From: Alphaproteobacteria bacterium
GTDB taxonomy: Bacteria > Pseudomonadota > Alphaproteobacteria > VGDZ01
DNA length: 64,000 nt
Reading direction: 5' to 3'
Assembly: GCA_016869515.1 (NCBI GenBank)
Contig: VGDZ01000008.1
Span: forward strand, 2,437 to 66,436
Below, in pieces: positions 14,561 to 63,182 of this stretch. Below the pieces are notes generated by a model that ran no database searches, was not told the origin of the DNA, and saw only the letters and a program-made list of their open reading frames with translations. The position numbers were made by a program, and so were the translations under genes. Position 1 is the first letter of the stretch. Every line of letters starts with the position of its first letter.

Positions 14561-15915
14561 GGCGCCGCCAGATCCGCGCCCAGGCCGCGCATCAGGGCGA
14601 CGAAGTCGGGAAACGAAGTCGCGATCGAAGCAATGTCGTCGATCGCCACCGGGTCCCGCGAGGCCAGCCCCAACACCAAAAAGCTCATGGCGATGCGATG
14701 GTCCAGCCGCGCGGCGATGCTTGCCCCGCCGGCGGGCGGCTTGCCTTGGCCGTGGATGACAAGGCTGTCCTTGCCCTCTTCGACCTTTACCCCGCAAGCG
14801 GCCAGGCCCTGCGCCACCGCCCCCAGCCGGTCGCTTTCCTTGACCCGCAGCTCGGCCAGGCCGCGCATCTCGGTCTTGCCCTCGGCGCAAGCCGCGGCCA
14901 CGGCCAGGATGGGATATTCGTCGATCATCGACGGCGCGCGCTCGGGCGGCACGATCGTGCCCTTGAGCCGCCCGTGGCGCACGGTCAGCTCGGCCACCGG
15001 CTCGCCGCCGACCTCGCGCCGCTGGCCATAGGACAGATCGCAGCCCATTTCCTCGAGCGTCGCCAGCAGCCCGGTGCGCAGCGGATTGAGCCCCACCCCC
15101 GCCACCGTCACCCGGCTGCCCGGCACGATCGCGGCCGCCACCAGCGCAAAGGCGGCCGAGGACGGATCGGCCGGAACGTCGATCGAGCGACCTTCCAATT
15201 CGGGCTGGCCGACCAGGGTGACGACGCGGCCCTCGGCCGTGTCCTCGACCCGCACCGTCGCCCCGAAATGGCGCAGCATGCGCTCGGAATGATCGCGCGT
15301 CGGCTCGGGCTCGATCACCGTTGTCTCGCCGCGCGCGTTCAGCCCCGCCAGCAGAATGGCGGACTTGACCTGCGCCGAGGGCACCGGCAGGCGATAGCGG
15401 ATCGGCAGCGCCTCGCCGGTGCCGCGGATCGCGCCCGGCAGCCGATCGCCCGCGCGCAAGCGCAGCTCGGCGCCCATCGACTCCAACGGCCGCGCCACCC
15501 GGCCCATCGGCCGGCGTCGCAGCGAAGCATCGCCGGTCGCGACCGCCAGCAAAGGATGACTCGCCAGCACGCCCATCATCAGCCGCGCGCCGGTGCCGGA
15601 ATTGCCGAAATCGAGCACGTCCTCGGGTTCGACCAAGCCGCCGATGCCGCGCCCCTGCACGCGCGCCTCGCCGGCGGCCGAGATTTCGACCGCGGCACCC
15701 AACGCGCGGCAGGCGGCGGCGGTGTTCAGCACGTCCTCGGCCATCAGCAGGCCGCGCACCCGCGTCTCGCCCACCGCCAGCAGGCCGAGGATCAGCGACC
15801 GATGGGAAATCGACTTGTCGCCGGGCGCCGTGACGCGGCCGACCAGCGGCCCCGAACGGCGGGCGCGAAGCGGCTGGATGCGGGCGGCGGCGGTCACGGC
15901 GCGCCTCTCTAACAC
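14557..15915 (-). CDS. aroA: 3-phosphoshikimate 1-carboxyvinyltransferase (EPSP synthase)
   Basis: 452 aa, [10 protein letters not shown] motif. Confidence 0.95.
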
Positions 15916-16011
15916 GGGCCCGGGGCCAAGCGAATATTGTTTTGACAGCGGTCGGGGCTTCTGGCAAAGCCTTGCGCCGCTTCCGTCTCAAGTCAGTTCC
16001 GGAGTCCGCCC

Positions 16012-16362
16012 GTGGCAAAACCCGAATGGGGTCAGAAGCGTCGCTGCCAATCCTGCGCCGCCAAGTACTACGACCTCGGCAAGTCCAAGATCGAATGCCC
16101 GAAATGCGGCGTCGAGTGGCAGCCCGACGTGATCGTGCGCAGCGCGCGCGATGCCGCCAAGGCCGCGCCGCCGGTCGCCAAGCCCAAGCCGCAGCCGGCG
16201 CTGGAGACCGCCAAGATGGAGGAGGCCGCGACCGACGAGGAAATCGCCGAGGGCGACGAGGAGGAAGTTCTCGAGGACGCCTCCGACCTGGGCGAGGACG
16301 AGGACGTGGCCGAAGTGATCGACAAGCCGATCGACGGCGAGAAGGAAAAGGACGCCGATTGA
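16012..16362 (+). CDS. TIGR02300-family zinc-ribbon protein with acidic tail
   Basis: GTG start; MAKPEWGQKRRCQSCAAKYYDLGKSKIECPKCG followed by a D/E-rich C-terminus. Commonly next to aroA in alphaproteobacteria. Confidence 0.8.
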   Translation: MAKPEWGQKRRCQSCAAKYYDLGKSKIECPKCGVEWQPDVIVRSARDAAKAAPPVAKPKPQPALETAKMEEAATDEEIAEGDEEEVLEDASDLGEDEDVAEVIDKPIDGEKEKDAD

Positions 16363-16432
16363 CCCTTTGCCCGGCGCGGCGCCGGGGCTTGAATTCGCCG
16401 ACCGTCGGGCCTAGGTTCCGGCCCGACCGCGC

Positions 16433-16508
<76 letters not shown>

Positions 16509-16513
16509 GTTTT

Positions 16514-16554
16514 CCGAGGGCTCGGCCGGATGCGGCCGGGCCCTCGGCGCTTTT
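16514..16554. terminator. Rho-independent terminator after tRNA-Ala (possibly bidirectional)
   Basis: Stem ccgagggc (16514-16521) / gccctcgg (16540-16547) with an inner GC stem, followed by cgcTTTTc. It lies between tRNA-Ala and the convergent SRPBCC gene. Confidence 0.6.
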
Positions 16555-16565
16555 CGGATCGGTCT

Positions 16566-17054
16566 TCAGCCTTTGGCCAACCACTCGACCAGCTTGTCGA
16601 ACGAGCCGGTCCAGCCCTCGCCGTGGTTGTCGCGCGCGCCCTTGCTGTCGAAGCGCTCGTGGCGCAGCGTCATCTCGGTGCGCTCGCCCAGCGCGCGCAG
16701 GCTGATGGTGACCAGGGATTCGTGGCCGAGCTTGCCGCTGGCCGCGTCTTCCCACGCCCAAGTGAAGACCAGCTTGCGATCGGGCACCACCTCGCGATAG
16801 ACGCCGCAGACGGTGTGGGTCGCGCCCGACTCGCCGCGCATGCCGATGCGATAGCGCCCGCCCGGACGGACCTCGAGCGGGCCGACATCCGAGGTCTTGA
16901 TGCTGCGCGGGCCCATCCAGGACGCCAGCGCCTCGGCCGTGGTCCAGGCGCGATAGATCGCGGCGGGCGAGGCCTTGAAGACGCGGGTCAGGACCAGGGT
17001 GCGGTCAGTTTCGGTTTCGGCCGGGGCTCGGGCGGCGGCGGTTTGGGCGGTCAT
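16566..17054 (-). CDS. SRPBCC (Aha1/START-like) domain protein
   Basis: 162 aa; usual partner gene of ArsR-type regulators. 50-nt overlap with the upstream arsR-like ORF, so the true start is uncertain. Confidence 0.7.
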   Translation of the reverse strand: MTAQTAAARAPAETETDRTLVLTRVFKASPAAIYRAWTTAEALASWMGPRSIKTSDVGPLEVRPGGRYRIGMRGESGATHTVCGVYREVVPDRKLVFTWAWEDAASGKLGHESLVTISLRALGERTEMTLRHERFDSKGARDNHGEGWTGSFDKLVEWLAKG

Positions 17055-17388
17055 GGCGGGGTCCTTCCTTCGGTGTCGTGCGTTCGAGATGTTCGGCCAG
17101 CCGATCCAGGCTTTGGTTCCAGAACTGCCGGTAGTGATCGAGCCAATCCGAGGCTTGGCGCAGCGGATCGGCGGTCAGCGCGCAGGGACGGAACTGGCCC
17201 TCGGCCGCGCGCGAAATCAGCGCCGCCCGCTCCAGCACTTTGAGATGGCGGGAAATCGCCGGCAGCGAAATGGCGAACGGTTCCGCCAGTTCGGTGACGC
17301 TGGCCTGGCCGAGCGCCAGCCGAGCCAGGATGGCGCGGCGGGTCGGGTCGGCCAGGGCAGCGAAGGTACGATCGAGATTGGGGCTCAT
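17005..17388 (-). CDS. ArsR/SmtB-family transcriptional regulator
   Basis: 127 aa; FAALADPTRRAILARL ... SVTELAEPFAISLPAISRHLKVLE winged-HTH. Confidence 0.85.
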   Translation of the reverse strand: MSPNLDRTFAALADPTRRAILARLALGQASVTELAEPFAISLPAISRHLKVLERAALISRAAEGQFRPCALTADPLRQASDWLDHYRQFWNQSLDRLAEHLERTTPKEGPRHDRPNRRRPSPGRNRN

Positions 17389-17401
17389 GGCGGCACGCTT
17401 T

Positions 17402-17423
17402 TATTTAACCTATTGGTTAAATA
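17402..17423. promoter_or_regulatory. Candidate ArsR operator (AT-rich inverted repeat)
   Basis: tatttaacc-tatt-ggttaaata, perfect 9-bp arms, 14 nt upstream of the arsR-like ATG. Nested inside the outer complementary arms ggcggcac (17390-17397) / gtgccgcc (17431-17438). Confidence 0.5.
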
Positions 17424-17442
17424 GTCGCTGTGCCGCCCGTTG

Positions 17443-18627
17443 TCAAGCCACGGGCGCGAACACCTCGCTGGCGCCTTCGACCCCGCGCAGCGCGTGTCGG
17501 CCGAGCGAGCGCAGCAGGCCCGGCAGATAGGCTGCGACCTCGGCCGAGATCACGATCGGCTGGCCGAGCGGCTTGGCCAGAGATTCCAGCCGCGTGACGT
17601 GGTTGACCGCCGGGCCGATGACGGTGAAGTCGAGCCTGCGGCTGGTGCCGATATTGCCGAACAGCACCTCGCCGATATGGACGCCGAGGCCAAAGCGAAT
17701 CTCGGGCTGGCCGGCCGCGGCACGCTTCCGATTGGTTTCGGCCACCGCCGCCTTCGCCGCCAGCGCCACGTCCAGCGCCGCTGCGCAGGCCGGTCCGTCG
17801 CCGCCCTCGCGCACCGGCAGAATTGCCAGCATGGCATCGCCGATGAATTTCAGGATCTCGCCGCCCTTGGCCGTCACCGGCTCGCCGACGGCATCGAAAT
17901 AGTCGTTGAGCAGGCCGATCACCGTCTCGCGCGGCAGCGTGTCCGACAGCCGGGTGAAGTCGCGCAAATCCGCGAACCAGATCACGGCGCGGATGGTCTC
18001 GCCGTCGCCGCGCTGCACCACGCCCGACAGGATCCGCGCCCCCGCCTCGTGGCCGACATAGGCGTCGAGCAGGTTGATCGCCGTGATCCGCAGGGCGTGG
18101 ATTTCGACGATCCGCGCCAGCAGCATCTGCAGCGCGTACATGCGATCGAGTTGGGCGGCGGTGAATCCGTCCGATCCGTCGGCGACCACCGACAGGGCGT
18201 CGATATGGCCGTTGCCGAAGAACACCGGCATGATGACGTAGTCGGTGGCGCCTTCGGCCTTGAGTTCCTTGAGCAAAGGAAAGCGCGGTTCGACCTCTTT
18301 CAGCCGCACCCGTACGGTCTTGCCCTGGGCGTAGACGATGGGCAGCGGGTTATCGAGATAGTCGACGTCCTTGAGGATCGAATAGGGCGCGTTATAGGCC
18401 ACGACCTCCTGGCCGCGGCGCCAGAAATAGGCCGTGCCGAGGAATTCGGGCCGCGGCGAGCGGCGGAAATAGGCCAAGCGGAACAACGGAATGCCGGCCT
18501 CGACCAGGCGCTGGGCGATGCCGGCGACCAGATCCTTGGTCTCGGTCAGGAGAAAGGCCTCGGTCACCAGCCAACGCGCGATGGGATCGCCGTAATCGGT
18601 GTTGGGCATGGCAATGCGCCGGTCCAT
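17443..18627 (-). CDS. class III adenylate/guanylate cyclase with uncharacterised about 190-aa N-terminal domain
   Basis: 394 aa; C-terminal FADLRDFTRLS ... KFIGDAMLA ... GVHIGEVLFGNIG ... DFTVIGPAVNHVTRLE cyclase motifs. Confidence 0.85.
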   Translation of the reverse strand: MDRRIAMPNTDYGDPIARWLVTEAFLLTETKDLVAGIAQRLVEAGIPLFRLAYFRRSPRPEFLGTAYFWRRGQEVVAYNAPYSILKDVDYLDNPLPIVYAQGKTVRVRLKEVEPRFPLLKELKAEGATDYVIMPVFFGNGHIDALSVVADGSDGFTAAQLDRMYALQMLLARIVEIHALRITAINLLDAYVGHEAGARILSGVVQRGDGETIRAVIWFADLRDFTRLSDTLPRETVIGLLNDYFDAVGEPVTAKGGEILKFIGDAMLAILPVREGGDGPACAAALDVALAAKAAVAETNRKRAAAGQPEIRFGLGVHIGEVLFGNIGTSRRLDFTVIGPAVNHVTRLESLAKPLGQPIVISAEVAAYLPGLLRSLGRHALRGVEGASEVFAPVA

Positions 18628-20136: not shown

Positions 20137-20187
20137 TCACGATCCGTCTTGAACCACTTGGTTCAAGACAAATCGATCATGCCCTAG
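20137..20187. repeat. Right portion of the interrupted mosaic repeat
   Basis: tcacgatccgtcttgaaccacttggttcaagacAAatcgatcatgccctag matches 49734-49784 with 2 mismatches. The terminal cta supplies the TAG stop of the gene at 20184. Confidence 0.8.
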
Positions 20188-42338: not shown

Positions 42339-43070
42339 ATGAACCCACGCATCGCCCAAGGCGGCAAGGCGATCTACGGCGCGCCGCTCGGCATCTTGAT
42401 GCTGGAGGCGCGCTTTCCCCGCATTCCGGGCGACATGGGCAATGCGGCGACTTGGCCGTTTCCGGTGCTCTATCGCGTGGTTCCCGGCGCCAGCCCCAAG
42501 CGCGTGGTGCTGGAAGGCGCGCGCGGCCTGTTGCCCGATTTCGTCGCCGCGGCCGAGGATCTGGTCCGGCTCGGCGCCGAGGCCATCACCACCAATTGCG
42601 GCTTTCTGTCCCTGTTCCAAGCCGAGCTGGCAGCGCGGGTCAAGGTACCGGTAGCGACGTCGTCGCTGTTGCAAGTGCCTTGGGTCCAGGCGCTGCTGCC
42701 GCCCGGACAGCGCGTCGGCGTGCTGACGGTCTCGGCGGCCACGCTCACGCCCGAACACTTGCGCGCGGCCGGCGTGCCGCTGGACACGCCCATCGCCGGC
42801 ACCGAGCGCGGCCGCGAATTCTATCCGGTGCTGATCGAGGGCCGCAGCCAACAGATGGACATCGCTCTGGCCGAAGCCGACATTCTTGCCGCCGGGCGCG
42901 ACCTGGTCGCGCGCCATCCCGAGATCGGCGCAGTGGTGCTGGAATGCACCAACATGCCGCCCTATGCCGCCGCGCTGCGGGCGGCGATCGGCCGGCCGGT
43001 CTACGACATCTATTCGATGATCGCCTGGTTCCAGCAGGGCCTTCGGCCGCGGCGCTTTGCCTTCGACTGA
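42339..43070 (+). CDS. Asp/Glu/hydantoin racemase-family protein
   Basis: 243 aa with two Cys-containing motifs, ITTNCGFLS and VLECTNMPPY. Confidence 0.65.
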   Translation: MNPRIAQGGKAIYGAPLGILMLEARFPRIPGDMGNAATWPFPVLYRVVPGASPKRVVLEGARGLLPDFVAAAEDLVRLGAEAITTNCGFLSLFQAELAARVKVPVATSSLLQVPWVQALLPPGQRVGVLTVSAATLTPEHLRAAGVPLDTPIAGTERGREFYPVLIEGRSQQMDIALAEADILAAGRDLVARHPEIGAVVLECTNMPPYAAALRAAIGRPVYDIYSMIAWFQQGLRPRRFAFD

Positions 43071-43073
43071 GGT

Positions 43074-43766
43074 CTATTCGAAACCGCAGGCCGCGCGCGC
43101 GGTAGCGGTGTCCTTGCCGCTCAGCCAAGCCACCAGCCGCCGCGCCAGCTCGGGCGTGGTGGATGCCGTGGCGACCGTGGCGACGTAAGTCGTCTCCAGC
43201 GCGAAGGGCGGCGGCAAGGCTCCCACCATCGCCACGCCCGGCGTGGCCAGGATCTCGGTGACTTGGGTGCAGCCGACGGCTCGCGGATCGGCTTCCGCCG
43301 CCAGCGCCCGCATTGCCGTCATGCCGTTGGGGTGCGGGCGCAAACGCGCCGCAAGCGAGGCGTAGAGCCCAAGCTGCCTGAGCACGCCCGCGAAATGGAT
43401 GCCGGCGGTGGCGCGCACCGGATCGGGCAGATGGATCGCACTGGCAGAGGCCAGCAGCGTTCGAAGCTGCTCGCTGTCCGAGATAGCCGGCTTGGCCGCG
43501 CCGGCCGGGGCCGCGATCGCCGTCCGCACCCGCCCCAACACCCCCGCCTCGCCCGCGGCCGCGCGGCCCTCGCCCTCCAAGGTCCGGATCAGTTCGGCGG
43601 TCAGCACCAGCACGTCGCAGGGCGCCCCTGCGGCCAGCGCCTCGCGCATCGCCCCGACCGCGCCGAAGCGGCCCGCAAGCACGATGCCCGCCATGCGCTC
43701 GAACTCGGCGCCCAGCCGGCCGAACAGGCCCTCGGCCGCGCCGCCGCTCAGAACATGCAATGCCAT
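43074..43766 (-). CDS. ModA-like type-2 periplasmic-binding-fold protein without a signal peptide
   Basis: 230 aa, starts MALHVLSGGAAEGLF with no hydrophobic leader. Molybdate/anion-binding-protein-like fold inferred from the sequence pattern. Confidence 0.5.
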   Translation of the reverse strand: MALHVLSGGAAEGLFGRLGAEFERMAGIVLAGRFGAVGAMREALAAGAPCDVLVLTAELIRTLEGEGRAAAGEAGVLGRVRTAIAAPAGAAKPAISDSEQLRTLLASASAIHLPDPVRATAGIHFAGVLRQLGLYASLAARLRPHPNGMTAMRALAAEADPRAVGCTQVTEILATPGVAMVGALPPPFALETTYVATVATASTTPELARRLVAWLSGKDTATARAACGFE

Positions 43767-43808
43767 GCCGACTCCCGGGCGAAGATTAGCCTCGGCTCCG
43801 GCTGCGAC

Positions 43809-43834
43809 AAAATAGGTATTGACGTACCTATTTT
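43809..43834. promoter_or_regulatory. AT-rich perfect inverted repeat, candidate operator in a divergent promoter region
   Basis: aaaataggta-ttgacg-tacctatttt (10-bp arms, 6-nt spacer containing TTGACG). It lies 42 nt upstream of the thioesterase ATG in an otherwise GC-rich window. Confidence 0.5.
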
Positions 43835-43875
43835 AGTATTTAAGGCTGATCCGGACCAGAACCAGGGAGAGCGCG

Positions 43876-44286
43876 ATGAAAAGCTCGCTTGCCGCCGGCA
43901 TCGCCACCAGCCGCCGCATCACCGTCGACCGCGACCGCACCATCGGCTTCATGGGCGAGGAAGGACGGGTCTATGCCACGCCGATGCTGGTGCGCGACAT
44001 CGAGCAGACCTGCCGCGACTTCCTGCTCGAACATCTCGATCCGGGCGAGGATTCGGTCGGCACGCGGGTCGAACTCGACCACCTCGCGCCGACGCTGATG
44101 GACATGTGGGTCGAAATCGCCGTCACCGTCGCCGAGGTCAAGGGCCGGCTGGTGAGCTTCGAGATCGCCGCCAAGGACGCGCTCGACCCGGTCGGCAAGG
44201 GCCGCCACATCCGCTTCGTCTCCGACGTCGCCAAGACCAAGGAGCGGCTCAAGGCCAAGGCCGCCAAGCTCAAGGCCGCGGGCTAG
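43876..44286 (+). CDS. hotdog-fold thioesterase (FlK/COG5496-like)
   Basis: 136 aa; RVYATPMLVRDIEQTC ... VGTRVELDHLAPT pattern. GGGAGA RBS. Confidence 0.65.
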   Translation: MKSSLAAGIATSRRITVDRDRTIGFMGEEGRVYATPMLVRDIEQTCRDFLLEHLDPGEDSVGTRVELDHLAPTLMDMWVEIAVTVAEVKGRLVSFEIAAKDALDPVGKGRHIRFVSDVAKTKERLKAKAAKLKAAG

Positions 44287-44290
44287 CGCC

Positions 44291-47035
44291 ATGTCGGCCG
44301 CCCCGGAACGAAGCCAGGTTCCGGTCTATTGCTATCAGTGCGTCGCCGGCCCCGATCTGCTCAAGGTCGAGGTGGCGGGCGACGTGGCGTTGCGGGTCGC
44401 ACCCAATTTCGATTGCGCCGCCGAGCACCCGGGCGGCGGCAAGGTCTGCGTCAAGGCCTATGGCCTGGTGCAGAAGACCTACAATCCGCACCGCATCCGC
44501 CAACCGATGATGCGCACCAATCCGCGCAAGGGGCGCGACCAGGACCCGGGCTTCGTGCCGATCTCCTGGGACGAGGCGCTGACGCTGGTGGCCGACCGGC
44601 TGCGCGCGGTGCGCGAACAGGGCCTGGTCGACGAGCGGGGCTATCCCAGGCTTGCAGCCTCGTTCGGCGGTGGCGGCACGCCGACCCAGTATATGGGCAC
44701 CTTCCCCGCCTTCCTGTCGGCCTGGGGCCCGGTCGATCTCGGCTTCGGCTCGGGCCAGGGCGTCAAGTGCTACCACTCCGAACATCTTTACGGCGAGCTT
44801 TGGCATCGCGCCTTCATCGTCTCGCCCGACACGCCGCTGTGCCGTTTCGTGCTGTCCTTCGGCAACAACACCGATGCCTCGTCGGGCGTGGCCGGCGTGG
44901 CGCGGCACGCCGAGGCTCGCGCCCGCGGCCTGCGCCGCATCCAGATCGAGCCGCATCTGTCGATCTCGGCCGCGCTGGCCTCGGAATGGGTGCCGATCCG
45001 GCCCAAGACCGACGCGGCTTTTCTCTACGCCATGCTGCATCGCATTCTGATCGAGCGCGATTGGCGAATCTGCTGCGATCTGCCTTTCCTCGGACGGGAC
45101 ACCAACGCGCCCTATCTGGTCGGACCCAACGGCTATTTCCTGCGCGACCCCGAAAGCAAGAAGCCGCTGGTCTGGGACCAGAACGGCGGCTGCACCCGGC
45201 CGCAGGACGCGCCGATCGGCCGCCCGCTGCTCGACGGCACGGTTCGCGCCGGCGGCGTCGAGATCGGGCCCGACGGCCAAGTCTGGCGTCATGAAGAGGT
45301 CGAGGTTTCCACCGCCTTCCGCAAGCTGATCGACCATCTGCGGCCCTACTCTCCGGACTGGGCAGCGGCGGAATGCGAGGTTCCGGCCGACACCATCCGC
45401 CGCATCGCCGACGAGTTCGTCACGCAGGCCCGGGTCGGCGAGACCGTCGTCATCGACGGCGTAACGCTGCCCTACCGGCCGGTGGCGGTGATCCTGGGCA
45501 AGACCGTCAACAACGGCTGGGGCGGGTTCGAGGCCACCTGGGGACGGACGCTGCTGGCCTGCCTGGTCGGCGCGCTGGAAGTGCCGGGCGGCACGCTCGG
45601 CACCAACGTCAAGCTCAACCGGCCGGCCGACGATCGCCACGCCACCGTCACGCCGACCGCCGACGGCTTCATGGCCTATCCCTTCAACGCCACCGACCGC
45701 GCGGGCTGGCAATCGAAGCCGCATATCCGCAACGCCTATCGCACGCTGGTGCCGCTGGCGGCCAATTCGGCCTGGTCGCCGGCGCTGGGTCCGGCGCACC
45801 TGCCCTGGCTGTTCCTGAAGGCACCGCCCGAGCGGTGGCCGGCGCCGACGCGGCCGGCAGTGTGGTTCTGCTATCGCACCAATCCGGCGATCTCGTTCTG
45901 GGACACCGAAGCCGTGGCCGAACGCATCGCCGAATTCCCCTTCGTCGTCGCCTTTGCCTACACCCGCGACGAGACCAACCACATGGCCGACATCTTGCTG
46001 CCCGAGGCCGGCGACCTCGAGGGCCTGCAGCTGATCCCGATCGGCACCACCAAGTTCATCGAGCAGTTCTGGACCCGCCGGGGCTGGGCGATCCGCCAGC
46101 CGGCAGGCGCTTCGCCGGTCGACTGCCGCGACATGACCGACATCGCCACCGAACTGGCGCGGCGCCTCGGCCTGCTCGAAGCCTACAACCAGGCCATCAA
46201 CCGCGGCGCCGCCGGCGTGGCGCTGAAGGGCGAGGACTACGATTACGGCCTCGAGCCGCATCTGCTTCACGACCGCGACGCGATCTGGGACCGCGCCTGC
46301 CGCGCCGCCAGCCACGCCCTGACCGACGGCAAGCAGGTCCGCGACCTGGCGTGGTTCAAGGCACATGGCGCCATGACCGTACCCTTCCCGCAATTGCGCT
46401 GGTATCTCTACCCGACGCTCAAGGCCAAGGGCCTGCGCTTCGAATTGCCCTATCAGGAGCGCCTGCTGCGCCATGGCAGCGAGCTTGGGAACCGGCTGCA
46501 CGAAAGCGGCATTGCCTGGTGGGACAAGCAGTTGGGCGAATACCAGGCGCTGCCGGCCTATAAGCGCTTTCCCGAGATCTTCGTCGAATACGCCCGCGAG
46601 GTCGGGCGCGATCCGGCCGAGTTCCCGTTCTGGGCGCTGACCGCGCGCAGCATGCAGTATTCCTGGGGCGCCAATGCCGGCCTGCCGCTGATCGACGAGA
46701 TGGCGCGCAACATCGCCGGCCATTCCGGCGTGATCGTCAATGCCGACACCGCGGCCAAGCTTGGCATCGCGGAGGGCGATCCAGTCGAGATCGAATCCGT
46801 GGTCGGTCGCACCCACGGCCATGCCACGCTGCGCCAGGGCATCCGCCCCGACACCATCGTCATGATCGGCCAGTTCGATCATTGGGCGATGCCGGTGGCC
46901 AAGGATTTCGGCCGCGCCAGCCTCAATCCGCTGATGCCGATGGCGCTGTCGCTGACCGACGCCACCGGCTCGGGCTCGGACACGGTGCGCGTCGCGCTGC
47001 GCCGGGGCAGCGGGCCAAGGCGCGCCGAGCCATGA
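44291..47035 (+). CDS. molybdopterin (bis-PGD, DMSO-reductase family) oxidoreductase catalytic subunit, no Tat signal
   Basis: 914 aa. The N-terminus MSAAPERSQVPVYCYQC lacks RRxFLK. It has an N-terminal Cys cluster and molybdopterin oxidoreductase and dinucleotide-binding regions. It is followed by an FeS/anchor gene. Confidence 0.8.
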   Translation: MSAAPERSQVPVYCYQCVAGPDLLKVEVAGDVALRVAPNFDCAAEHPGGGKVCVKAYGLVQKTYNPHRIRQPMMRTNPRKGRDQDPGFVPISWDEALTLVADRLRAVREQGLVDERGYPRLAASFGGGGTPTQYMGTFPAFLSAWGPVDLGFGSGQGVKCYHSEHLYGELWHRAFIVSPDTPLCRFVLSFGNNTDASSGVAGVARHAEARARGLRRIQIEPHLSISAALASEWVPIRPKTDAAFLYAMLHRILIERDWRICCDLPFLGRDTNAPYLVGPNGYFLRDPESKKPLVWDQNGGCTRPQDAPIGRPLLDGTVRAGGVEIGPDGQVWRHEEVEVSTAFRKLIDHLRPYSPDWAAAECEVPADTIRRIADEFVTQARVGETVVIDGVTLPYRPVAVILGKTVNNGWGGFEATWGRTLLACLVGALEVPGGTLGTNVKLNRPADDRHATVTPTADGFMAYPFNATDRAGWQSKPHIRNAYRTLVPLAANSAWSPALGPAHLPWLFLKAPPERWPAPTRPAVWFCYRTNPAISFWDTEAVAERIAEFPFVVAFAYTRDETNHMADILLPEAGDLEGLQLIPIGTTKFIEQFWTRRGWAIRQPAGASPVDCRDMTDIATELARRLGLLEAYNQAINRGAAGVALKGEDYDYGLEPHLLHDRDAIWDRACRAASHALTDGKQVRDLAWFKAHGAMTVPFPQLRWYLYPTLKAKGLRFELPYQERLLRHGSELGNRLHESGIAWWDKQLGEYQALPAYKRFPEIFVEYAREVGRDPAEFPFWALTARSMQYSWGANAGLPLIDEMARNIAGHSGVIVNADTAAKLGIAEGDPVEIESVVGRTHGHATLRQGIRPDTIVMIGQFDHWAMPVAKDFGRASLNPLMPMALSLTDATGSGSDTVRVALRRGSGPRRAEP

Positions 47036-48630
47036 GCGCCGTGGCCGCGACCCGGCGCTGGGGCATGGCGATCGATCTCGATCGCTGCGTCGGCTGCCAG
47101 ACCTGCGCCGTCGCCTGCAAGCACGCGAACGACACCCCGCTGGGCATCCAATGGCGGCGGGTGCTGGACGTGGAGCTGGGCAAGTTCCCGGACGTGGCGC
47201 GGCTGTTCCTCCCGGTCGGCTGCCAGCATTGCGACGATCCGCCTTGCGTGCCGGTCTGTCCCTCGGGCGCCACGCGCCGGCGCGCCGACGGCATCGTCAC
47301 CCAGGATTACGATCTCTGCATCGGCTGCGGCTATTGCGCGGTGTCCTGCCCCTATGGCGCCCGCAGCATCGACCACGCGCCGCGCGGCTATTTCGGCGCC
47401 GCCCTGACGCGCCAGGAAGGCGCCGTCGCCCATGACGAGCGCCGCGGCGTGGCGCAGAAATGCACCTTCTGCGTCGAGCGCATCGATCGCGGCCTGGCCC
47501 GCGGCCTGGTGCCGGGCGTCGATCCCGAGGCGACGCCGGCCTGCGCCGCTGCCTGCATCGCCGGCGCGATGACCTTCGGCGATCTGGCCGATCCGGCCAG
47601 CCCGGTCGCGCGGCTGCTGGCCGCCAATCCCGGCACGGTGCTGAACGGCCCGCTCGGCGCCGGCCCCAATCTGCGTTATTTCACCCGCGCCCCCAGCGCC
47701 GACATCGCCTTGGCCATGCCCGCGACCAGCCCTTTGACCGGGCGCAGGCAGCGGCGCTGGGACATCCGCGCCGTGGCCAATTTCGGTCTCGGCGGCAGCG
47801 GGTCGGGCTTGGCGGCGGTGGCTTCGGCGTTCGGTCTGTTCGGCTTGCTGGACCGATCGGCGATCCTGCTGCTGCACCTGCTGGCGGCGGGGCTGATCGC
47901 CGCCGGCCTGACGGCGGTGTGGTTCGAGATCGGCCGCATGGAGCGCCTGCTCAACGCGCTGCGGCGTCCGCGGAGTTCGTGGATGAGCCGCGAGATGTAC
48001 GTCGTCGGCGCGCTGTTCGCGGCCCTCGGCGCCGAGTGGCTGTGGCCGGGTCCGGAATCGACCGGGCTGGTCGGTCTGCTCGCCCTCGCCTTCCTCTATT
48101 GCCAGGCGCGCATCCTGACCGCGGCCAAGGGCATTCCCGCTTGGCGGCCGCGGGCGATGCGCTGGCTGTTGCTGGCTTCCGGCCTGGCCGAAGGCTGCGG
48201 CTGGCTGGCGCTTGGGAATGCCTTGCTCCCGTTCGCGCCCGATCTGACCGCGCCGCTCGGCCTGGCCATGATCCTGGCGGCCGCCGCGCTGGCGACGCTG
48301 TGGCCGATCTACTGGCGCGAGGCCGTGGCCGGCGGTCTGGGCGATGGCGCCAAGCGCGAGATCGCCGGCCTGATGCCGGCCATGCTGGGCATCGGCCAGG
48401 TGCTGCCGGCGATGCTGGCGGCCGGCGCCCTGCTCGCTTCCGGCCTGGTCGCGCTCGCGCTTTCGGGCATAGCCGGCGCCATCCTGGTCGTCGGCGGCCT
48501 GTGCTGGAAGTACGCCGTCATCGTCGATGCCTCCCATGTCCAGGACCTGATCCTGCCGCAAGTGCCCCGGCGCGGCTCGGGCCGTCTGGCAGCCCTTCCG
48601 TCCGAACCCGTCGAGGTCCGCCCGTCATGA
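47032..48630 (+). CDS. fused DmsB-like 4x[4Fe-4S] ferredoxin domain + DmsC-like 8-TM membrane anchor
   Basis: The ATG at 47032 overlaps the upstream stop (ATGA). Four Cys groups: CVGCQTCAVAC, CQHCDDPPCVPVCP, CIGCGYCAVSCP, CTFC...CAAAC. These are followed by about 8 hydrophobic helices. Confidence 0.8.
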   Translation: MSAVAATRRWGMAIDLDRCVGCQTCAVACKHANDTPLGIQWRRVLDVELGKFPDVARLFLPVGCQHCDDPPCVPVCPSGATRRRADGIVTQDYDLCIGCGYCAVSCPYGARSIDHAPRGYFGAALTRQEGAVAHDERRGVAQKCTFCVERIDRGLARGLVPGVDPEATPACAAACIAGAMTFGDLADPASPVARLLAANPGTVLNGPLGAGPNLRYFTRAPSADIALAMPATSPLTGRRQRRWDIRAVANFGLGGSGSGLAAVASAFGLFGLLDRSAILLLHLLAAGLIAAGLTAVWFEIGRMERLLNALRRPRSSWMSREMYVVGALFAALGAEWLWPGPESTGLVGLLALAFLYCQARILTAAKGIPAWRPRAMRWLLLASGLAEGCGWLALGNALLPFAPDLTAPLGLAMILAAAALATLWPIYWREAVAGGLGDGAKREIAGLMPAMLGIGQVLPAMLAAGALLASGLVALALSGIAGAILVVGGLCWKYAVIVDASHVQDLILPQVPRRGSGRLAALPSEPVEVRPS

Positions 48631-49649
48631 ACCATGCCCAGCCCCAAGCCGCCCTGCGCCCGCTCGCGCCGGCCGATCTCGACGCCGTCGTCGCCTTGGA
48701 TGCGGCGCGCGCCGGCCGTTCGCGGCGGGGATATTTCCAGAAACGCCTGGCGGCGGCGCTGCGCGATCCCGCCGGCCATGTCCAGTTCGGCGCCGAGAGC
48801 GGCGGCAAGCTGGTTGGGCACGTGCTGGCGCGGCTGCGCGAAGAGGAGTTCGGGCGCCACGCGCCAGTGCTGGCGATCGAGGCGATCGCGGTCGCGCCGG
48901 AACAGGCCGGCCGCGGCCTCGGCCACCGGTTGATCGCGGCGCTGGAGGACACGATGTGGCGGCGCGGCGTCGACGAATTGCAGACCGACGCCGCCTGGAC
49001 CGACCACGCGCTGCTGCGCTTTTTCGATTCCTGCGGCTTTCGCCTGGCGCCAAGGCAAGTGATCGCGCGTGCCGTCGCCGGCGGCATCGCCCATCCCGCT
49101 CCGGCCGACGACGCCGCGGCGGTGCCGGTGACAGTCGAGCGGCCGGTCGAGATCGACTACGGCGCGCCGGGGCTGGCCGACTACCAGCCGCTGGCGCATG
49201 ATCGCCACGCCGTGCGCTCGATGCGCGCCGACGACCTGGCGGCCATCTCCCGCATCGACCGCCGCATCACTGGCCGCGACCGCAGCTTCTATTTCAAGAA
49301 GCGGCTCGACGAGGCGCTGCTGGATTCGGCGGTGCGGGTGTCGCTGGTGGCCGAGCAGGACGGCGCTCCGGTCGGCTTCGTCATGACCCGGACCGATGCC
49401 GGCGAGTTCGGCCACACCGAACCGACCGCGATCCTGGACACCATCGGCGTCGATCCGGCGCTGACCGGCCAGGGCGTCGGCACGGCCATGCTGTCGCAAC
49501 TGCTGGTCAATTTGGGCGGGCTGCGGATCGAGACCGTCGAGACCGAGGTCGCGCGCGAGGACTTCGCCCTGCTCAAATTCCTTTACGACGCCGGCTTCGT
49601 GCCGGCCCAGCGCCTGGTGTTCGCGCGCGCCGCCAAGCCGCGGCTCTAG
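48627..49649 (+). CDS. tandem GNAT-domain N-acetyltransferase-family protein
   Basis: The ATG at 48627 overlaps the upstream stop (ATGA). 340 aa with two GNAT cores (IAVAPEQAGRGLGHRLI and IGVDPALTGQGVGTAML). Confidence 0.7.
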   Translation: MNHAQPQAALRPLAPADLDAVVALDAARAGRSRRGYFQKRLAAALRDPAGHVQFGAESGGKLVGHVLARLREEEFGRHAPVLAIEAIAVAPEQAGRGLGHRLIAALEDTMWRRGVDELQTDAAWTDHALLRFFDSCGFRLAPRQVIARAVAGGIAHPAPADDAAAVPVTVERPVEIDYGAPGLADYQPLAHDRHAVRSMRADDLAAISRIDRRITGRDRSFYFKKRLDEALLDSAVRVSLVAEQDGAPVGFVMTRTDAGEFGHTEPTAILDTIGVDPALTGQGVGTAMLSQLLVNLGGLRIETVETEVAREDFALLKFLYDAGFVPAQRLVFARAAKPRL

Positions 49650-49660
49650 ACCGCGATCGG

Positions 49661-49784
49661 TTTGCATGGAATCGCAGACGCTATTCCATGCAAACCGTGA
49701 ATCGCGGTCCAGAGCGGGATACGAGGGCATGATTCACGATCCGTCTTGAACCACTTGGTTCAAGACGGATCGATCATGCCCTAG
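49661..49784. repeat. Intact intergenic mosaic palindromic repeat (empty-site copy of the IS target)
   Basis: Hairpin tttgcatggaat/attccatgcaaa (49661-49694). A perfect 34-bp palindrome gatccgtcttgaaccacttggttcaagacggatc (49738-49771) is flanked by gggcatgat/atcatgccc arms. The terminal cta is the stop of the ankyrin gene. Confidence 0.8.
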
Positions 49785-50461
49785 CGGCGGGAATCTACGG
49801 TAAGGATTTCGACCATGCGGGCATAACCCGTTCGCCGCGCGTGATCCAGCGGCGTCAGGCCGGCGCGGTCGGGGATCGAAATATCGGCGCCGGCCCCGAC
49901 CAGGGCGCGCAAGGTCGCCTGATGGCGCGACCCGCCATCGCCCAGCACCACCGCCTCCATCGCCGCCGTCCAGCCCAGATTGTTGACGTGATCGAGCGGC
50001 GCGCCGCCGGCGATCAGCGCCGCCACCACCTCGGCATGGCCAAGATGGGCGGCGGCGATCAGCGCGGTGCCGTCATAGGGCGAGGTGACGGCGCGCGCAT
50101 CCGCGCCCAGCGCCAGCGCCAATTCGACCATCGCCAGGTCGTTCTTGACCGCGGCGATGGTGACGATGTCGTAGCGCCGGGAATCCTTGGCGCGAAGATC
50201 GGCCCCGGCCCGCGCCAGCGCCTTGATCGCCTCGTAATGCGAGCCGTGAGCCGCGATGTGCACGGCGCTGCGGCCATGGCCGTCGCGCGCGTCGAGATCG
50301 GCCCCGGCCGCGATCGCCGCCGCGATCGCCCCGACATCGCCCTTGGCTGCCGCCGCCAGCAGCCCGGAATAGCTCGCGAGCTCGCGTGGCGACGGCGGTA
50401 CTTGCGCCAAGGCCAGCGACGCGGCCAGCCAGATGGCGAATGCCCAAACCCAATGTTTCAT
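49781..50461 (-). CDS. secreted ankyrin-repeat protein
   Basis: 226 aa; signal peptide MKHWVWAFAIWLAASLALAQ; about 5 ANK repeats (G.SAVHIAA..GH.E....L...GADL). Confidence 0.8.
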   Translation of the reverse strand: MKHWVWAFAIWLAASLALAQVPPSPRELASYSGLLAAAAKGDVGAIAAAIAAGADLDARDGHGRSAVHIAAHGSHYEAIKALARAGADLRAKDSRRYDIVTIAAVKNDLAMVELALALGADARAVTSPYDGTALIAAAHLGHAEVVAALIAGGAPLDHVNNLGWTAAMEAVVLGDGGSRHQATLRALVGAGADISIPDRAGLTPLDHARRTGYARMVEILTVDSRR

Positions 50462-50509
50462 GCGCCCGAGTGGACCACGATTCCGTCGGCGACGGAATTG
50501 CCCTCCGTC

Positions 50510-50755
50510 TCAGCCGTGGAGCGCGCGGTATTTTTCCATCAGCTGGTCCTGGCTTTCGGCATAATCCGGGTTGGCGACGATGCAGTCGGCCGGACACACC
50601 AGCTTGCATTGCGGCTCGTCGTGGGCGCCGACGCATTCGGTGCAGCGCAGCGCGTCGATGACGTAGACCGGATCGCCCTTGGCGATGGCCTCGTTGGGGC
50701 AGACCGGCACGCAGGCATCGCAATTGGTGCAGTCCTGGTTGATCAGCAGGGCCAT
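50510..50755 (-). CDS. fdx: 2x[4Fe-4S] ferredoxin (electron donor of benzoyl-CoA reductase, Thauera Fdx-like)
   Basis: 81 aa from ATG 50755: MALLINQDCTNCDACVPVCP ... CTECVGAHDEPQCKLVCP. Position directly after bcrD. Confidence 0.85.
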   Translation of the reverse strand: MALLINQDCTNCDACVPVCPNEAIAKGDPVYVIDALRCTECVGAHDEPQCKLVCPADCIVANPDYAESQDQLMEKYRALHG

Positions 50756-58437: not shown

Positions 58438-58467
58438 TTGACGTCTTATTCTGTAATTCGGTATATC
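58438..58467 (+). promoter_or_regulatory. Putative sigma70-like promoter for korAB within an AT-rich divergent control region
   Basis: TTGACG (58438-58443) - 18 nt - TATATC (58462-58467), about 40 nt upstream of the korA ATG. Confidence 0.4.
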
Positions 58468-58507
58468 TTTACCTGTTTACATCCTCCCTGTCAAGCGAGG
58501 TACCGCC

Positions 58508-60229: not shown

Positions 60230-61050
60230 GCGCCGCCCCCGCCTATGTCGCCAAGGACTACAAATCCGACGTCAAGCCGGTGTGGTGCCCGGGCTGCGGC
60301 GATTTCTCGGTGCTGGCGGCCTTCGGCAAGGCCTTCGCCGAGCTTGGCCTGGCGCCCGAGCGCGTCGCCGTGATCTCGGGCATTGGCTGTTCCTCGCGCA
60401 TCCCGGCCTATACCCGGACCTACGGCTTTCACGGCGTGCACGGCCGCGCGCTGGCGCTGGCCACCGGCCTCAAGCTGGCGCGGCCCGAGCTGACCGTGGT
60501 CGCCGCCGGCGGCGACGGCGACGGCTTCTCGATCGGCGGCAATCACTTCCTGCACGCCTGCCGGCGCAATGTCGATCTGACCTATGTGGTGATGGACAAC
60601 CGGGTCTACGGCATGACCAAGGGCCAGCCCTCGCCCACCACCGAGCCGGATTGGGACAGCGCGCTGTCGCCGGGCGGCACCGGCCTGCGGCCGTTCAATC
60701 CGCTGGTGATCGCGCTGGCCTCGGGCGCCAATTTCGTCGCCCGCGCCTTCTCGGGCGATCCCAATGCCTGCGCCGCGATGATCGTCGCCGCCATCCGCCA
60801 TCCCGGCTTCAGCTTCGTCGAGATCCTCAGCCCCTGCGTCACCTTCCGCCCCGATCAGCGCGGCTGGAAGGAGCAGGTGCGCCAAGCCCCGGTCGCGGCC
60901 ACCGGCGATCCCGCCCGCGCCGCGCGCCGGCTGATGACCGACGACGGCTTCAATCTCGGCGTGCTCTACCAGGGCGATCGGCTGCCCTATCGCCCGCCGC
61001 CGGGCGAGGGCGCGCGGCCGGCCGATCTCGAAGCCGAGTTCGCGGCATGA
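60226..61050 (+). CDS. korB: 2-oxoglutarate:ferredoxin oxidoreductase beta subunit (TPP-binding)
   Basis: The ATG at 60226 overlaps the korA stop. WCPGCGDF ... GGDGDG TPP motif; 274 aa. Confidence 0.85.
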   Translation: MSAAPAYVAKDYKSDVKPVWCPGCGDFSVLAAFGKAFAELGLAPERVAVISGIGCSSRIPAYTRTYGFHGVHGRALALATGLKLARPELTVVAAGGDGDGFSIGGNHFLHACRRNVDLTYVVMDNRVYGMTKGQPSPTTEPDWDSALSPGGTGLRPFNPLVIALASGANFVARAFSGDPNACAAMIVAAIRHPGFSFVEILSPCVTFRPDQRGWKEQVRQAPVAATGDPARAARRLMTDDGFNLGVLYQGDRLPYRPPPGEGARPADLEAEFAA

Positions 61051-61583
61051 GCGCCGATGACGCCATGCGCGCGGCGGCGCGCAAACTGGCGGCCGCGATC
61101 CGCGACGCCGAGGATTTCCGCGCCTGCGTCTTCGCGATCGAAAGCGAGGCGGCGGAACGCTACGCCGAACTGGCCGATCTGATGGCGACCCACAACAACC
61201 GCGAGGTGGCGGCACTGTTCCGCCGCCTAGCCGAGATCGAGGGCCTGCACGCCCGCAAGATGCTGGCGCCCGACGGCAGCGCGCCGCGGCTCCTTCCGGC
61301 CGGAATCGACTTCGTCGGCGCCGAGACCGTGTCGCACGAGGCCATGCACTATCTGATGACGCCGCGCCAGGCCTTGGCGCTGGCGCTGGAGGGCGAATGC
61401 AAGGCGGTGGCGCTGTTCGAGGCGCTGGCCGAGGGCGCGGCCGATCCCGCCATCCGCCGCCTCGCCGCCGAGATGGCGGTCGAGGAGCGCGGCCATGTCG
61501 CGCTGGTCCAGGCCTGGATGACCAAATTCCCCGAGCCCGAGGCGGATTGGGACCACGACCCCGATCCGCCGCGGCTGGACTGA
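61047..61583 (+). CDS. ferritin-like / rubrerythrin-domain protein
   Basis: The ATG at 61047 overlaps the korB stop (ATGA). 178 aa with paired E..EA.ERY.. and EGEC...E.RGH helices suggesting a di-iron site. Confidence 0.6.
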   Translation: MSADDAMRAAARKLAAAIRDAEDFRACVFAIESEAAERYAELADLMATHNNREVAALFRRLAEIEGLHARKMLAPDGSAPRLLPAGIDFVGAETVSHEAMHYLMTPRQALALALEGECKAVALFEALAEGAADPAIRRLAAEMAVEERGHVALVQAWMTKFPEPEADWDHDPDPPRLD

Positions 61584-62214: not shown

Positions 62215-62655
62215 TCAGTCGTCGGCGGCGGCGGCGGCCGGCGCCGCCGGCTCGCTGCGGGCATGCTTGAGCAGGGTCTCGATGGTGACCGAGCGCAACG
62301 TGGCGCGGGCGATGTCCTCGATCTCGGCCAAGACGCCGTGCAGCGCCTGGCCGAGGTGGGTATCGGGACCCTGGCCGTCGCCCGCTGCCTTGCCGGCGCC
62401 AATGTCCTCGAAGATCTCGATCACGTCCATCAGCGTCACCCGCTTGGGATTGCCGACGAAACGATAGCCGCCGCCGACGCCGCGCGCCGCCTCGACCAGG
62501 CCGGCACGGCCGAGATCGCGCAGCACCTTGGCGAGGTGGTTGAGCGAGATGCCGTATTTGGCGGCGATGTCGCCGGCCGCGATCTGGCGGTCGCGGTCCT
62601 CGGCCAGTTCGAGCACGGCGTAGAGCGCGAACAAGGTCGCCTTGTTGAGCCTCAC
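62215..62655 (-). CDS. Rrf2-family transcriptional regulator
   Basis: 3' part of track ORF 62215..63195. GTG 62655 overlaps the upstream GNAT stop (GTGA). VRLNKATLFALYAVLELAE ... ISLNHLAKVLRDLGRAGLVEAARGVGGGYR. Confidence 0.85.
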   Translation of the reverse strand: MRLNKATLFALYAVLELAEDRDRQIAAGDIAAKYGISLNHLAKVLRDLGRAGLVEAARGVGGGYRFVGNPKRVTLMDVIEIFEDIGAGKAAGDGQGPDTHLGQALHGVLAEIEDIARATLRSVTIETLLKHARSEPAAPAAAAADD

Positions 62656-63182
62656 TCGATGACCTTCTCGAGCTGGATGAAGGGGCCGGCCATCATGCCC
62701 TGGCTGCGGAAGAAGGACAGGTTGAGGTTGTCGTCGCGCCGCAGCATGGTGCGCAGGTGCTTGATGCCGGCGCCGCGGAAGCGTTCGGCCACGGCATCGA
62801 CCAGCCGGCTGCCGACATTGCGCAGCCGCGCCCCCGGATCGACGCCGATGGCGAACACCCAGCCGCAGGGCGGCGAGCCGAACTCCCAGGCGCGGATTTC
62901 GCCGATGGCGAAGCCGAGGAAGCGCCCCTCCGCCTCGGCCACCAGGAACCAGCGTTCCTTCGGCCGGCGCAGCACGCGGCGATGCAGATCGCGCCAATAG
63001 GCCGGCTTGGCCTCGCCGGTGTTGCGCGCGTCCAGCGCCGCCACCGCCGGCAGATCGCCCGGCCGCGCGGCGCGGATCACGGGCTCGATCCGGCCTCTTG
63101 ACGGCGCCGGGGAGGCGCCCCGGGGAGGCGCCGGGGAGGCGCTCGAGGCGGTCTTGCGCACGGATCGCGACTCCATTGTCAT
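62652..63182 (-). CDS. GNAT-family N-acetyltransferase
   Basis: 176 aa from ATG 63182. An alternative GTG start at 63080 would give a canonical MIRAARPGDLPAV N-terminus. FAIGVDPGARLRNVGSRLV acetyl-CoA motif. Confidence 0.75.
   Translation of the reverse strand: MTMESRSVRKTASSASPAPPRGASPAPSRGRIEPVIRAARPGDLPAVAALDARNTGEAKPAYWRDLHRRVLRRPKERWFLVAEAEGRFLGFAIGEIRAWEFGSPPCGWVFAIGVDPGARLRNVGSRLVDAVAERFRGAGIKHLRTMLRRDDNLNLSFFRSQGMMAGPFIQLEKVIE

Follow-up and report, generated by a model that had tools for sequence, protein, structure and literature searches.

The 64,000-nucleotide stretch analysed here (the window; contig VGDZ01000008.1, positions 2,437 to 66,436, from an Alphaproteobacteria bacterium) carries, beside a benzoyl-CoA reductase (bcr) gene cluster, a unit of four closely packed genes, all on the plus strand, whose open reading frames (ORFs) and junctions were read directly from the sequence (Table 1). 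Its products are an FlK-type hotdog thioesterase, a molybdopterin catalytic subunit (the Mo subunit), a fused iron-sulfur (FeS)/membrane-anchor protein, and a double GNAT acyltransferase. The unit starts at 43767 when the 109-bp promoter gap is included, while the hotdog gene, the first of the four, opens at 43876 behind a GGAG-type ribosome-binding site. The hotdog and Mo subunit genes are separated by a gap of 4 nt, and ATGA overlaps join the Mo subunit gene to the FeS/anchor gene (47032-47035) and the latter to the double-GNAT gene (48627-48630), exactly as described in an earlier note that a model had made from this sequence. Since their third-position GC is 0.87-0.92 in a window of 69% GC, the four ORFs are taken to be real genes.

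Table 1. Positions of the four genes and of the other features discussed, with the evidence on which each assignment rests.
Feature	Position	Strand	Evidence
Perfect 24-bp palindrome AAATAGGTA-ttgacg-TACCTATTT, candidate operator	43810..43833	.	Read directly, within the 109 bp that precede the hotdog gene
FlK-type hotdog thioesterase, 136 aa	43876..44286	+	Pfam FlK PF22636
PadB-type molybdopterin catalytic subunit, 914 aa	44291..47035	+	Pfam, identity to PadB, tree
Fused PadC-like FeS and PadD/PsrC/NrfD-like anchor protein, 532 aa	47032..48630	+	Pfam, NCBIfam, topology, AF2, Foldseek
Double GNAT acyltransferase, 340 aa	48627..49649	+	Two Pfam GNAT stretches, alignment
Pair of very stable hairpins where the GNAT and ankyrin genes converge	49648..49785	.	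RNA fold
Rrf2-family regulator (~62215-62655) and single GNAT (62652-63182)	62215..63182	-	Translation VRLNKATLFALYAVLELAE..., Pfam GNAT match

The Mo subunit contains the Pfam domains Molybdopterin (PF00384) and Molydop_binding (PF01568), and is 58% identical over 901 aa to PadB of Aromatoleum evansii KB740. In an exhaustive search of 50% representatives, its best match was the Thauera-type protein P0121 (61% identity), which is 97% identical to a protein of a Thauera metagenome-assembled genome. A genome scan with P0121 returned A. evansii KB740, A. toluclasticum, A. diolicum, A. anaerobium and Azoarcus sp. Aa7, and further Sulfuritalea, Rhodoblastus and Rhodoplanes. A word-indexed protein search with the Mo subunit itself yielded more than 3000 homologues, of which the best 120 are all ~910 aa long and 64-76% identical to it, and relatives were located in 481 stretches of the species-genome collection; tblastn against the PLSDB plasmids found nothing above 28% identity. 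Many of the best 120 homologues, as well as close homologues of the FeS/anchor subunit, carry the Joint Genome Institute (JGI) name "phenylacetyl-CoA:acceptor oxidoreductase." The earlier note did not recognise this combination of genes from any described system. Because the unit is homologous to PadBCD and the close homologues of both subunits have already been named by JGI, the enzyme type is not an unrecognised one and belongs to the PadBCD family.

Neighbour-joining trees (100 bootstraps) resolved three well-supported clades of Mo subunits, referred to here as A, B and C, which together were monophyletic (100/100) relative to outgroups of at most 49% identity. The window protein fell inside clade B (100/100), and clade A, that of the classical pad operon, was the sister of clade C (98/100). 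The 914-aa protein thus groups with PadB (100/100). In a separate placement with 60 bootstraps its sister was P0002 (60/60), and the two were nested with L001-L005, P0008 and P0011. The basal position within clade B that the window protein had taken in a first tree was discarded as a long-branch effect, since adding P0002 and other close proteins moved it to its nested position with L001-L005.

Cys160 of the Mo subunit, in the motif GVKCYHSEH, occupies the Mo-ligand position and is probably the Mo ligand; it is invariant in all three clades, and in PsrA and ArrA the region of the ligand Cys aligns with it. In the N-terminal cluster motif CxxCxxGPD...C, Asp replaces the third Cys of more distant relatives. 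Besides all three clades, six out of seven nearer outgroups in the range P0122-P0134 have this Asp, P0125 being the exception; the motif spans residues 14-22 of the window protein. Cys262 is invariant in clade B alone, and Leu is found at that position in clades A and C.

A Cys-ligated subunit with PsrB/PsrC-like partners could also belong to a respiratory reductase of the Psr/Phs/Arr kind, acting on polysulfide, thiosulfate or arsenate, whose export signal has been lost. PsrABC and ArrAB do resemble the window unit in combining a molybdenum-bis(pyranopterin guanine dinucleotide) (Mo-bisPGD) subunit bearing a Cys ligand, a four-cluster ferredoxin subunit and an NrfD-type 8-helix quinone site, and ArrA, PhsA and PsrA are the best matches of the Mo subunit among solved structures and NCBIfam models. 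These matches are, however, partial (E = 1e-18 to 1e-40) and far under the family cutoffs: the Mo subunit scores 138 bits against a cutoff of 694 for PhsA and 117 against 1600 for ArrA, and the Psr and Arr structures are far more distant from it than PadB (E = 3e-29 and 8e-18, over partial stretches). For the proteins of the unit, all NCBIfam equivalogs stay under their cutoffs, the best partial matches being PhsA, ArrA, DsrO, QrcC and ArrB. PsrABC and ArrAB are Tat-exported, act in the periplasm and reduce inorganic substrates; the window subunit has neither an export signal nor a score that attains the curated family cutoff, and the cytoplasmic orientation described below would not suit reductases of this kind. 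Given the full-length match to PadB at 58-61% identity, a cytoplasmic Psr/Arr-type reductase was rejected on identity and family cutoffs, and we regard it as extremely improbable.

The proposed orientation rests on both proteins of the complex. Between an in-frame stop and the start of the Mo subunit there is no other possible start, so the ORF cannot be extended upstream and no leader is hidden there. A twin-arginine translocation (Tat) motif is absent from the window protein and from the 16 orthologues read, whose N-termini begin 8-40 residues before a conserved CYQC motif, and RRxFLK was not found in orthologue or Thauera-type N-termini; the earlier claim that the 914-aa subunit has no twin-arginine leader is therefore borne out. 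Tat-like leaders do occur in the more distant relatives P0125, P0130 and P0177 (at most 41% identity).

The fused protein matches Fer4_11 and other 4Fe-4S families of Pfam, with NrfD and DmsC matches below threshold, and is 55% identical to PadC and 36% to PadD of A. evansii KB740. Its PadC-like domain (residues ~1-215) contains 16 Cys, sufficient for four [4Fe-4S] clusters, and is followed by a PadD/PsrC/NrfD-like quinone anchor of 8 helices (residues ~245-498). Lys and Arg number 6, 6, 3, 3 and 4 in the predicted cytoplasmic segments (total 22) and 1, 0, 0 and 0 in the periplasmic loops (total 1). An AlphaFold (AF2) model built on 53 homologues has a mean pLDDT of 80, a pTM of 0.83 and 8 long helices, and the pLDDT of its membrane part is mostly >90. 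When the model was searched with Foldseek, the N-terminal domain matched PsrB (TM 0.80) and ArrB (TM 0.69), and the C-terminal domain matched PsrC (2vpw_C; E = 1.6e-4, TM 0.76), all TM scores being normalised to the target, as well as ActC subunits of alternative complex III; the C-terminal domain thus has the 8-helix PsrC fold of NrfD/PsrC-type anchors. As the Mo subunit has no Tat leader, the helices follow a positive-inside pattern and the modelled domains adopt PsrB and PsrC folds, the prediction holds that the FeS domain and Mo subunit are cytoplasmic and attached to a PsrC/NrfD-type quinone module. This agrees with the earlier note, which placed the FeS domain before the helices and the active site in the cytoplasm; electrons would, as the note also predicted, pass to the quinone pool.

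The earlier note also pointed to the fusion of the two smaller subunits. They are indeed one polypeptide here, but the fusion is not peculiar to this locus: it was found in 74 of 75 clade-B loci and in 0 of 74 clade-A loci, the fused protein's top 120 homologues all have lengths of 524-577 aa, and the clade-C loci examined have distinct genes for PadC and PadD.

The hotdog protein matches the Pfam FlK family PF22636 at E = 1.5e-29 (102.6 bits against a cutoff of 27) and FlK chains of the PDB at E of about 5e-12. Its residues T35, E43 and H69 align with Thr, Glu and His of FlK, which we take to be the catalytic residues T42, E50 and H76, so that the triad is intact. FlK of Streptomyces cattleya is thus a member of the same hotdog family with the same Thr/Glu/His positions, although a distant one. 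Because the genomic partner is a PadB-type enzyme, the substrate of the window hotdog is presumably arylglyoxylyl-CoA and not fluoroacetyl-CoA, which makes the protein a candidate hydrolase of the 2-oxoacyl-CoA product. Hotdog proteins of the FlK type partner PadB in all three clades; with a limit of 10 kb around PadB, a homologue was found in 51/80 loci of clade A and 34/80 of clade B, and 12 of the 80 loci anchored on the double GNAT also have one.

PadBCD, the phenylacetyl-CoA:acceptor oxidoreductase of Thauera aromatica, Aromatoleum (Azoarcus) evansii KB740 and A. aromaticum EbN1, which takes four electrons from phenylacetyl-CoA with quinone as acceptor, is the characterised system closest to the window unit. 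It converts phenylacetyl-CoA to phenylglyoxylyl-CoA, which is then hydrolysed (PMC9765128, citing Rhee & Fuchs 1999). The earlier note was right to name PadBCD as the precedent, but understated the relationship: the Mo subunit (58-61% identity), the FeS domain (55%) and the anchor (36%) are homologous to those of PadBCD and not mere analogues. Both systems lack a Tat leader and share the Cys160 motif GVKC(Y/V)HSEH and the N-terminal CxxCxxGPD...C. The differences lie in architecture and context. PadBCD consists of three separate subunits (PadB, PadC and PadD, of 93, 27 and 26 kDa), whereas FeS domain and anchor share one ORF in the window, and the window unit alone is probably co-transcribed with a double GNAT. 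The classical pad operon of clade A comprises genes for an FdhD-like maturation protein, PadB, PadC, PadD, the phenylglyoxylate oxidoreductase PadEFGHI, the ligase PadJ and the regulator PaaX; in A. evansii KB740, PaaX is followed by an FdhD-like protein, PadB (919 aa), PadC (215 aa), PadD (302 aa), PadE and further POR-like subunits, and a PaaK-type ligase. PadEFGHI, FdhD-like and PaaX genes were found only in clade A (42-59 of 80 loci, compared with 0/84 clade-B and 0/80 GNAT-anchored loci), while the padJ-type ligase, within the same range in clade A, occurs in 9/84 clade-B loci. None of these operon genes lies near the window unit. To our knowledge, no enzyme other than PadBCD carries out the alpha-oxidation of a CoA-activated carboxylic acid without O2, and work on PadBCD has been limited to Thauera and Aromatoleum. 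In the literature searched, we found no characterised member of clade B or C and no description of these clades or of a fused or bcr-linked form; PadBCD was mentioned only in genome papers.

Taken with the CoA-ester context, in which AMP-forming ligase, CoA-transferase and enoyl-CoA hydratase genes neighbour clade-B loci and the FlK hotdog accompanies PadB, and with the aromatic context, the homology to PadBCD and the cytoplasmic topology make it probable that the unit encodes a membrane-bound, cytoplasm-facing Mo-FeS enzyme of the PadBCD family, a (hydroxy)arylacetyl-CoA:quinone oxidoreductase whose product is hydrolysed by the hotdog protein. In the mechanism we propose, the Mo-bisPGD subunit with its Cys ligand would oxidise the alpha-methylene group of an arylacetyl-CoA, most likely phenylacetyl-CoA or 4-hydroxyphenylacetyl-CoA, to the 2-oxoacyl-CoA (arylglyoxylyl-CoA) with oxygen from water. 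Electrons would pass through the Asp/Cys-ligated N-terminal cluster and the four [4Fe-4S] clusters of the PadC-like domain to quinone in the covalently fused PsrC/NrfD-type 8-helix domain. The FlK-type hotdog would release free arylglyoxylate, whose conversion to (4-hydroxy)benzoyl-CoA would feed the adjacent benzoyl-CoA reductase pathway. The broader proposal of the earlier note, an enzyme for CoA thioesters in the anaerobic metabolism of aromatics or arylalkanoates, is very probably correct.

Several points weigh against this interpretation. The 64-kb window contains no genes for a PaaK/PadJ-type ligase, PadEFGHI, an FdhD-like protein, PaaX or 4-hydroxybenzoyl-CoA reductase (Hcr), so that it shows neither where the substrate comes from nor what becomes of the product. 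Identity of 58-61% does not guarantee the same substrate, and clade B has Cys262 in place of the Leu of clades A and C. Finally, clade B is heterogeneous, and the substrate may vary within it because a large subclade has CoA-transferase III, short-chain dehydrogenase/reductase (SDR) and enoyl-CoA hydratase genes and no aromatic genes nearby.

The loci of the closest relatives bear on the question of the substrate. Their genes form a larger supercluster, with a branched-chain amino acid-type ABC transporter, a hexapeptide protein, Rrf2 and a single GNAT on the left (minus strand) and, on the right (plus strand), AMP-ligase, FlK, PadB', PadCD' (the fused protein), in some cases an IorAB-like pair, a PaaK-type ligase, HcrC, HcrA, HcrB and a GNAT pair, beyond which the other strand carries the ferredoxin and bcr genes. 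AMP-ligase, FlK, PadB', PadCD', PaaK-type ligase and HcrCAB genes are present in P0002, L003, L004, P0008 and P0011, and those of L004 and P0008 run on into the GNAT pair and bcr genes. No PaaK-type ligase, close AMP-ligase or Hcr genes were found in the window, which looks like a condensed form of this supercluster. Clade-C loci, found in Burkholderiales and other bacteria, follow the same logic ([AMP-ligase]-FlK hotdog-PadB-...-PaaK-type ligase-[HcrCAB]-double GNAT-bcr); they differ from the window in having separate PadC and PadD genes and in being sister to clade A, not B. In the P0011 locus (JGI 3300059473), the IorAB-like pair lies at 14359-17948, between PadCD' and the PaaK-type ligase, and consists of a 705-aa TPP_enzyme_C protein and a 505-aa POR/DUF6537 protein. 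As a candidate enzyme it has two possible roles: turning arylpyruvate into arylacetyl-CoA, or replacing PadEFGHI in the conversion of arylglyoxylate to aroyl-CoA.

The Hcr genes raise the alternative that an enzyme of the same type is dedicated to 4-hydroxyphenylacetyl-CoA in a tyrosine/4-hydroxyphenylacetate branch, clade A being the phenylacetyl-CoA enzyme. 4-Hydroxyphenylglyoxylate would then be converted to 4-hydroxybenzoyl-CoA, and this dehydroxylated to benzoyl-CoA by 4-hydroxybenzoyl-CoA reductase. HcrC/A/B follow PadCD' and the PaaK-type ligase in L003, L004, P0008 and P0011, the nearest relatives with enough flanking sequence, and occur in L043, L059, L066 and many clade-C loci, whereas under strict thresholds HcrA was detected in 1/80 clade-A loci. 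The HcrA-like protein of L043 matches the alpha subunit of 4-hydroxybenzoyl-CoA reductase (PDB 1RM6_A) at E = 1e-301. Anaerobic alpha-oxidation of 4-hydroxyphenylacetate was reportedly demonstrated biochemically by Mohamed et al. (1993), and we know of no genes assigned to it. The strict counts in clade B are low, however (HcrA 6/80 and HcrC 8/80 loci), the window itself lacks hcr genes, and in the clade-C loci L172, L192, L196 and L218 the order hotdog-PadB...PaaK-GNAT2-bcr is not interrupted by Hcr genes, which may be a mere module of aromatic islands. We therefore regard such a dedicated role as possible but rather unlikely, and continue to prefer an enzyme of broader (hydroxy)arylacetyl-CoA assignment.

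The remaining diversity of clade B, which is widespread among Alpha-, Beta- and Gammaproteobacteria from marine and soil habitats, bears on whether the substrate is aromatic at all. A subclade (L014, L017, L019, L029-L031, L034, L035, L038 and L051) has the order CoA-transferase III-SDR-Mo-fused FeS/anchor, and related loci (L016, L024, L053 and L054) have an enoyl-CoA hydratase gene downstream; no aromatic genes were found near this large subclade, which suggests a different acyl-CoA substrate for its enzymes. In marine Rhodospirillaceae (L028, L041, L044 and L081-L084), a 571-aa thiamine pyrophosphate (TPP)-dependent enzyme is encoded directly upstream of hotdog-Mo-FeS/anchor; it had no sequence match in the PDB at E<=1e-30, and is possibly a 2-oxoacid decarboxylase acting on the product. 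Other clade-B loci have the order AMP-ligase-hotdog-Mo-FeS/anchor or form a MetE-like group. The window enzyme could likewise be a PadB-like enzyme of general alpha-oxidation or hydroxylation that acts on a different, possibly non-aromatic acyl-CoA, with the proximity of bcr incidental. The contexts without aromatic genes (the CoA-transferase III, MetE-like and TPP-enzyme-hotdog groups) are compatible with this, as is the AMP-ligase partner, which is closer to FadD and feruloyl-CoA synthetases than to benzoate-CoA ligases; its PDB matches are generic ones to these two enzymes and do not settle its substrate. The subclade of the window protein, by contrast, carries PaaK-type ligase, Hcr, GNAT-pair and bcr genes, and an aromatic context is common to clade C, the sister of the classical PadB clade. 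A non-aromatic substrate thus appears unlikely for the window enzyme, and an arylacetyl-CoA remains the preferred one.

The double GNAT has two Acetyltransf_1 stretches in Pfam and is thus a tandem GNAT. In the family alignment, its C-terminal half keeps the canonical acyl-CoA motif QxxGxA as an invariant QGVGTA, and the N-terminal half has RGLGHR, degenerate at the last motif position. The protein had no sequence match in the PDB, and a genome scan with the single sequence found no relative; a scan with a four-sequence alignment returned 80 loci, 62 of which contain both GNAT halves. Within 10 kb of the double GNAT, bcrD occurs in 43 of these loci, PaaK-type ligase in 27, HcrB in 19, PadB in 18 and the hotdog in 12. 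The GNAT pair of L246 is made up of two individual genes that lie behind ferredoxin and hemerythrin on the bcr strand. Because of this arrangement and the frequency of bcrD, we conclude that the double GNAT is a bcr-linked gene that belongs functionally to the bcr gene set, though probably co-transcribed with the Mo operon here. It may serve in acyl-CoA-dependent acylation or in regulation of pathway enzymes; regulatory acylation of CoA ligases, of the kind that acts on acyl-CoA synthetases in Rhodopseudomonas palustris, offers at most a lead.

The four genes may accordingly not form one functional system, the double GNAT having become translationally coupled to the others only through local rearrangement or deletion, a view to which we give almost as much credence as to its opposite. 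GNAT2 homologues lie beside bcrD/bcrA in 43/80 loci, often without PadB nearby; relatives have PaaK and Hcr genes between PadCD' and the GNAT pair; and the double GNAT directly adjoins PadCD' only in the window. On the other side, the ATGA overlap and the lack of a terminator before 49650 argue for co-transcription in the window, and GNAT2 shares a supercluster with PadB in at least 18 loci. As a conserved four-gene unit the locus does not hold up: the Mo and FeS/anchor pair is always conserved, and the hotdog and double GNAT are not.

Upstream of the hotdog gene, the palindrome (Table 1) overlaps TTGACG, a -35-like hexamer. A pattern search for AAATAGGTA-N6-TACCTATTT gave a single exact match in the 64 kb, compared with 0.04 expected with up to 3 mismatches. 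A weaker GGTA-N6-TACC copy was noticed at 58457-58476, in the divergent had/korA promoter region. The two palindromes may be a shared operator, possibly for the Rrf2 regulator. The Rrf2/single-GNAT/hexapeptide module of the window lies at 61.6-63.2 kb, 13 kb from the Mo operon, and in close relatives (L245, L246 and the P0011 locus) the Rrf2 and single-GNAT pair adjoins the hotdog-PadB' operon divergently; a single GNAT also adjoins the Mo operon at L003 and L005. A scan of 43000-50600 for consensus sigma-70 sites found no promoter, and the sole terminator-like site in the same interval lies outside the four genes. The pair of hairpins at the 3' end (-94 kcal/mol, z = -11.2) is probably the transcript end of the unit. 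An arm of the second hairpin (49723-49785), GATCCGTCTTGAACC, was found again as a palindrome at 20141-20174, 29 kb away; with 4 matches against 0.16 expected, it resembles a repeated extragenic palindrome (REP).

Beyond the hairpins lies the ankyrin gene, which is convergent with the unit. Next come the genes for ferredoxin and BcrDABC, then two genes of the enoyl-CoA hydratase family and one for a Zn-dependent alcohol dehydrogenase, filling the positions of dch, oah and had, and korAB; this confirms the benzoyl-CoA neighbourhood reported earlier. Between korB and the hexapeptide/Rrf2/GNAT module there is an ORF at 60282-61583 with a rubrerythrin-like domain in its C-terminal part. Directly upstream of the unit, 42339-43766 holds an Asp/Glu/hydantoin racemase-superfamily gene (243 aa, with the Cys motifs TNCGF and ECTN) and a signal-less SBP_bac_11 (ModA-like) gene. 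The racemase-like, signal-less solute-binding protein and ankyrin genes were considered as parts of the unit and rejected, as other loci show no conserved association of these genes with PadB'. Further upstream, beyond 42.3 kb, come housekeeping genes (leuA, mreBCD, PBP2 and rodA).

The PadBCD enzyme type is known; what is new here is a widespread and unstudied fused-anchor form of it, a variant rather than a novel system. The FlK-type hotdog is nominated as the gene for the phenylglyoxylyl-CoA hydrolase activity that co-purified with PadBCD, and the natural PadC-PadD fusion, which fixes the FeS module at the cytoplasmic face of the anchor, could ease expression and structural study of the complex. 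Speculatively, and with long odds on the whole, clades B and C would constitute a second widespread, PadEFGHI-independent route of anaerobic arylacetate degradation, maybe the long-missing 4-hydroxyphenylacetate/tyrosine branch; it would comprise alpha-oxidation by the fused PadB'CD', an FlK arylglyoxylyl-CoA thioesterase, an IorAB-like or other 2-oxoacid oxidoreductase that with Hcr feeds bcr, and the double GNAT as a new regulatory or acyl-transfer component. Each of the three clades is present in many species-level genomes. Because two of them lack PadEFGHI and are wired to genes for benzoyl-CoA reductase, 4-hydroxybenzoyl-CoA reductase and PaaK-type ligases, they suggest unstudied variants of anaerobic phenylalanine, tyrosine and arylacetate catabolism.

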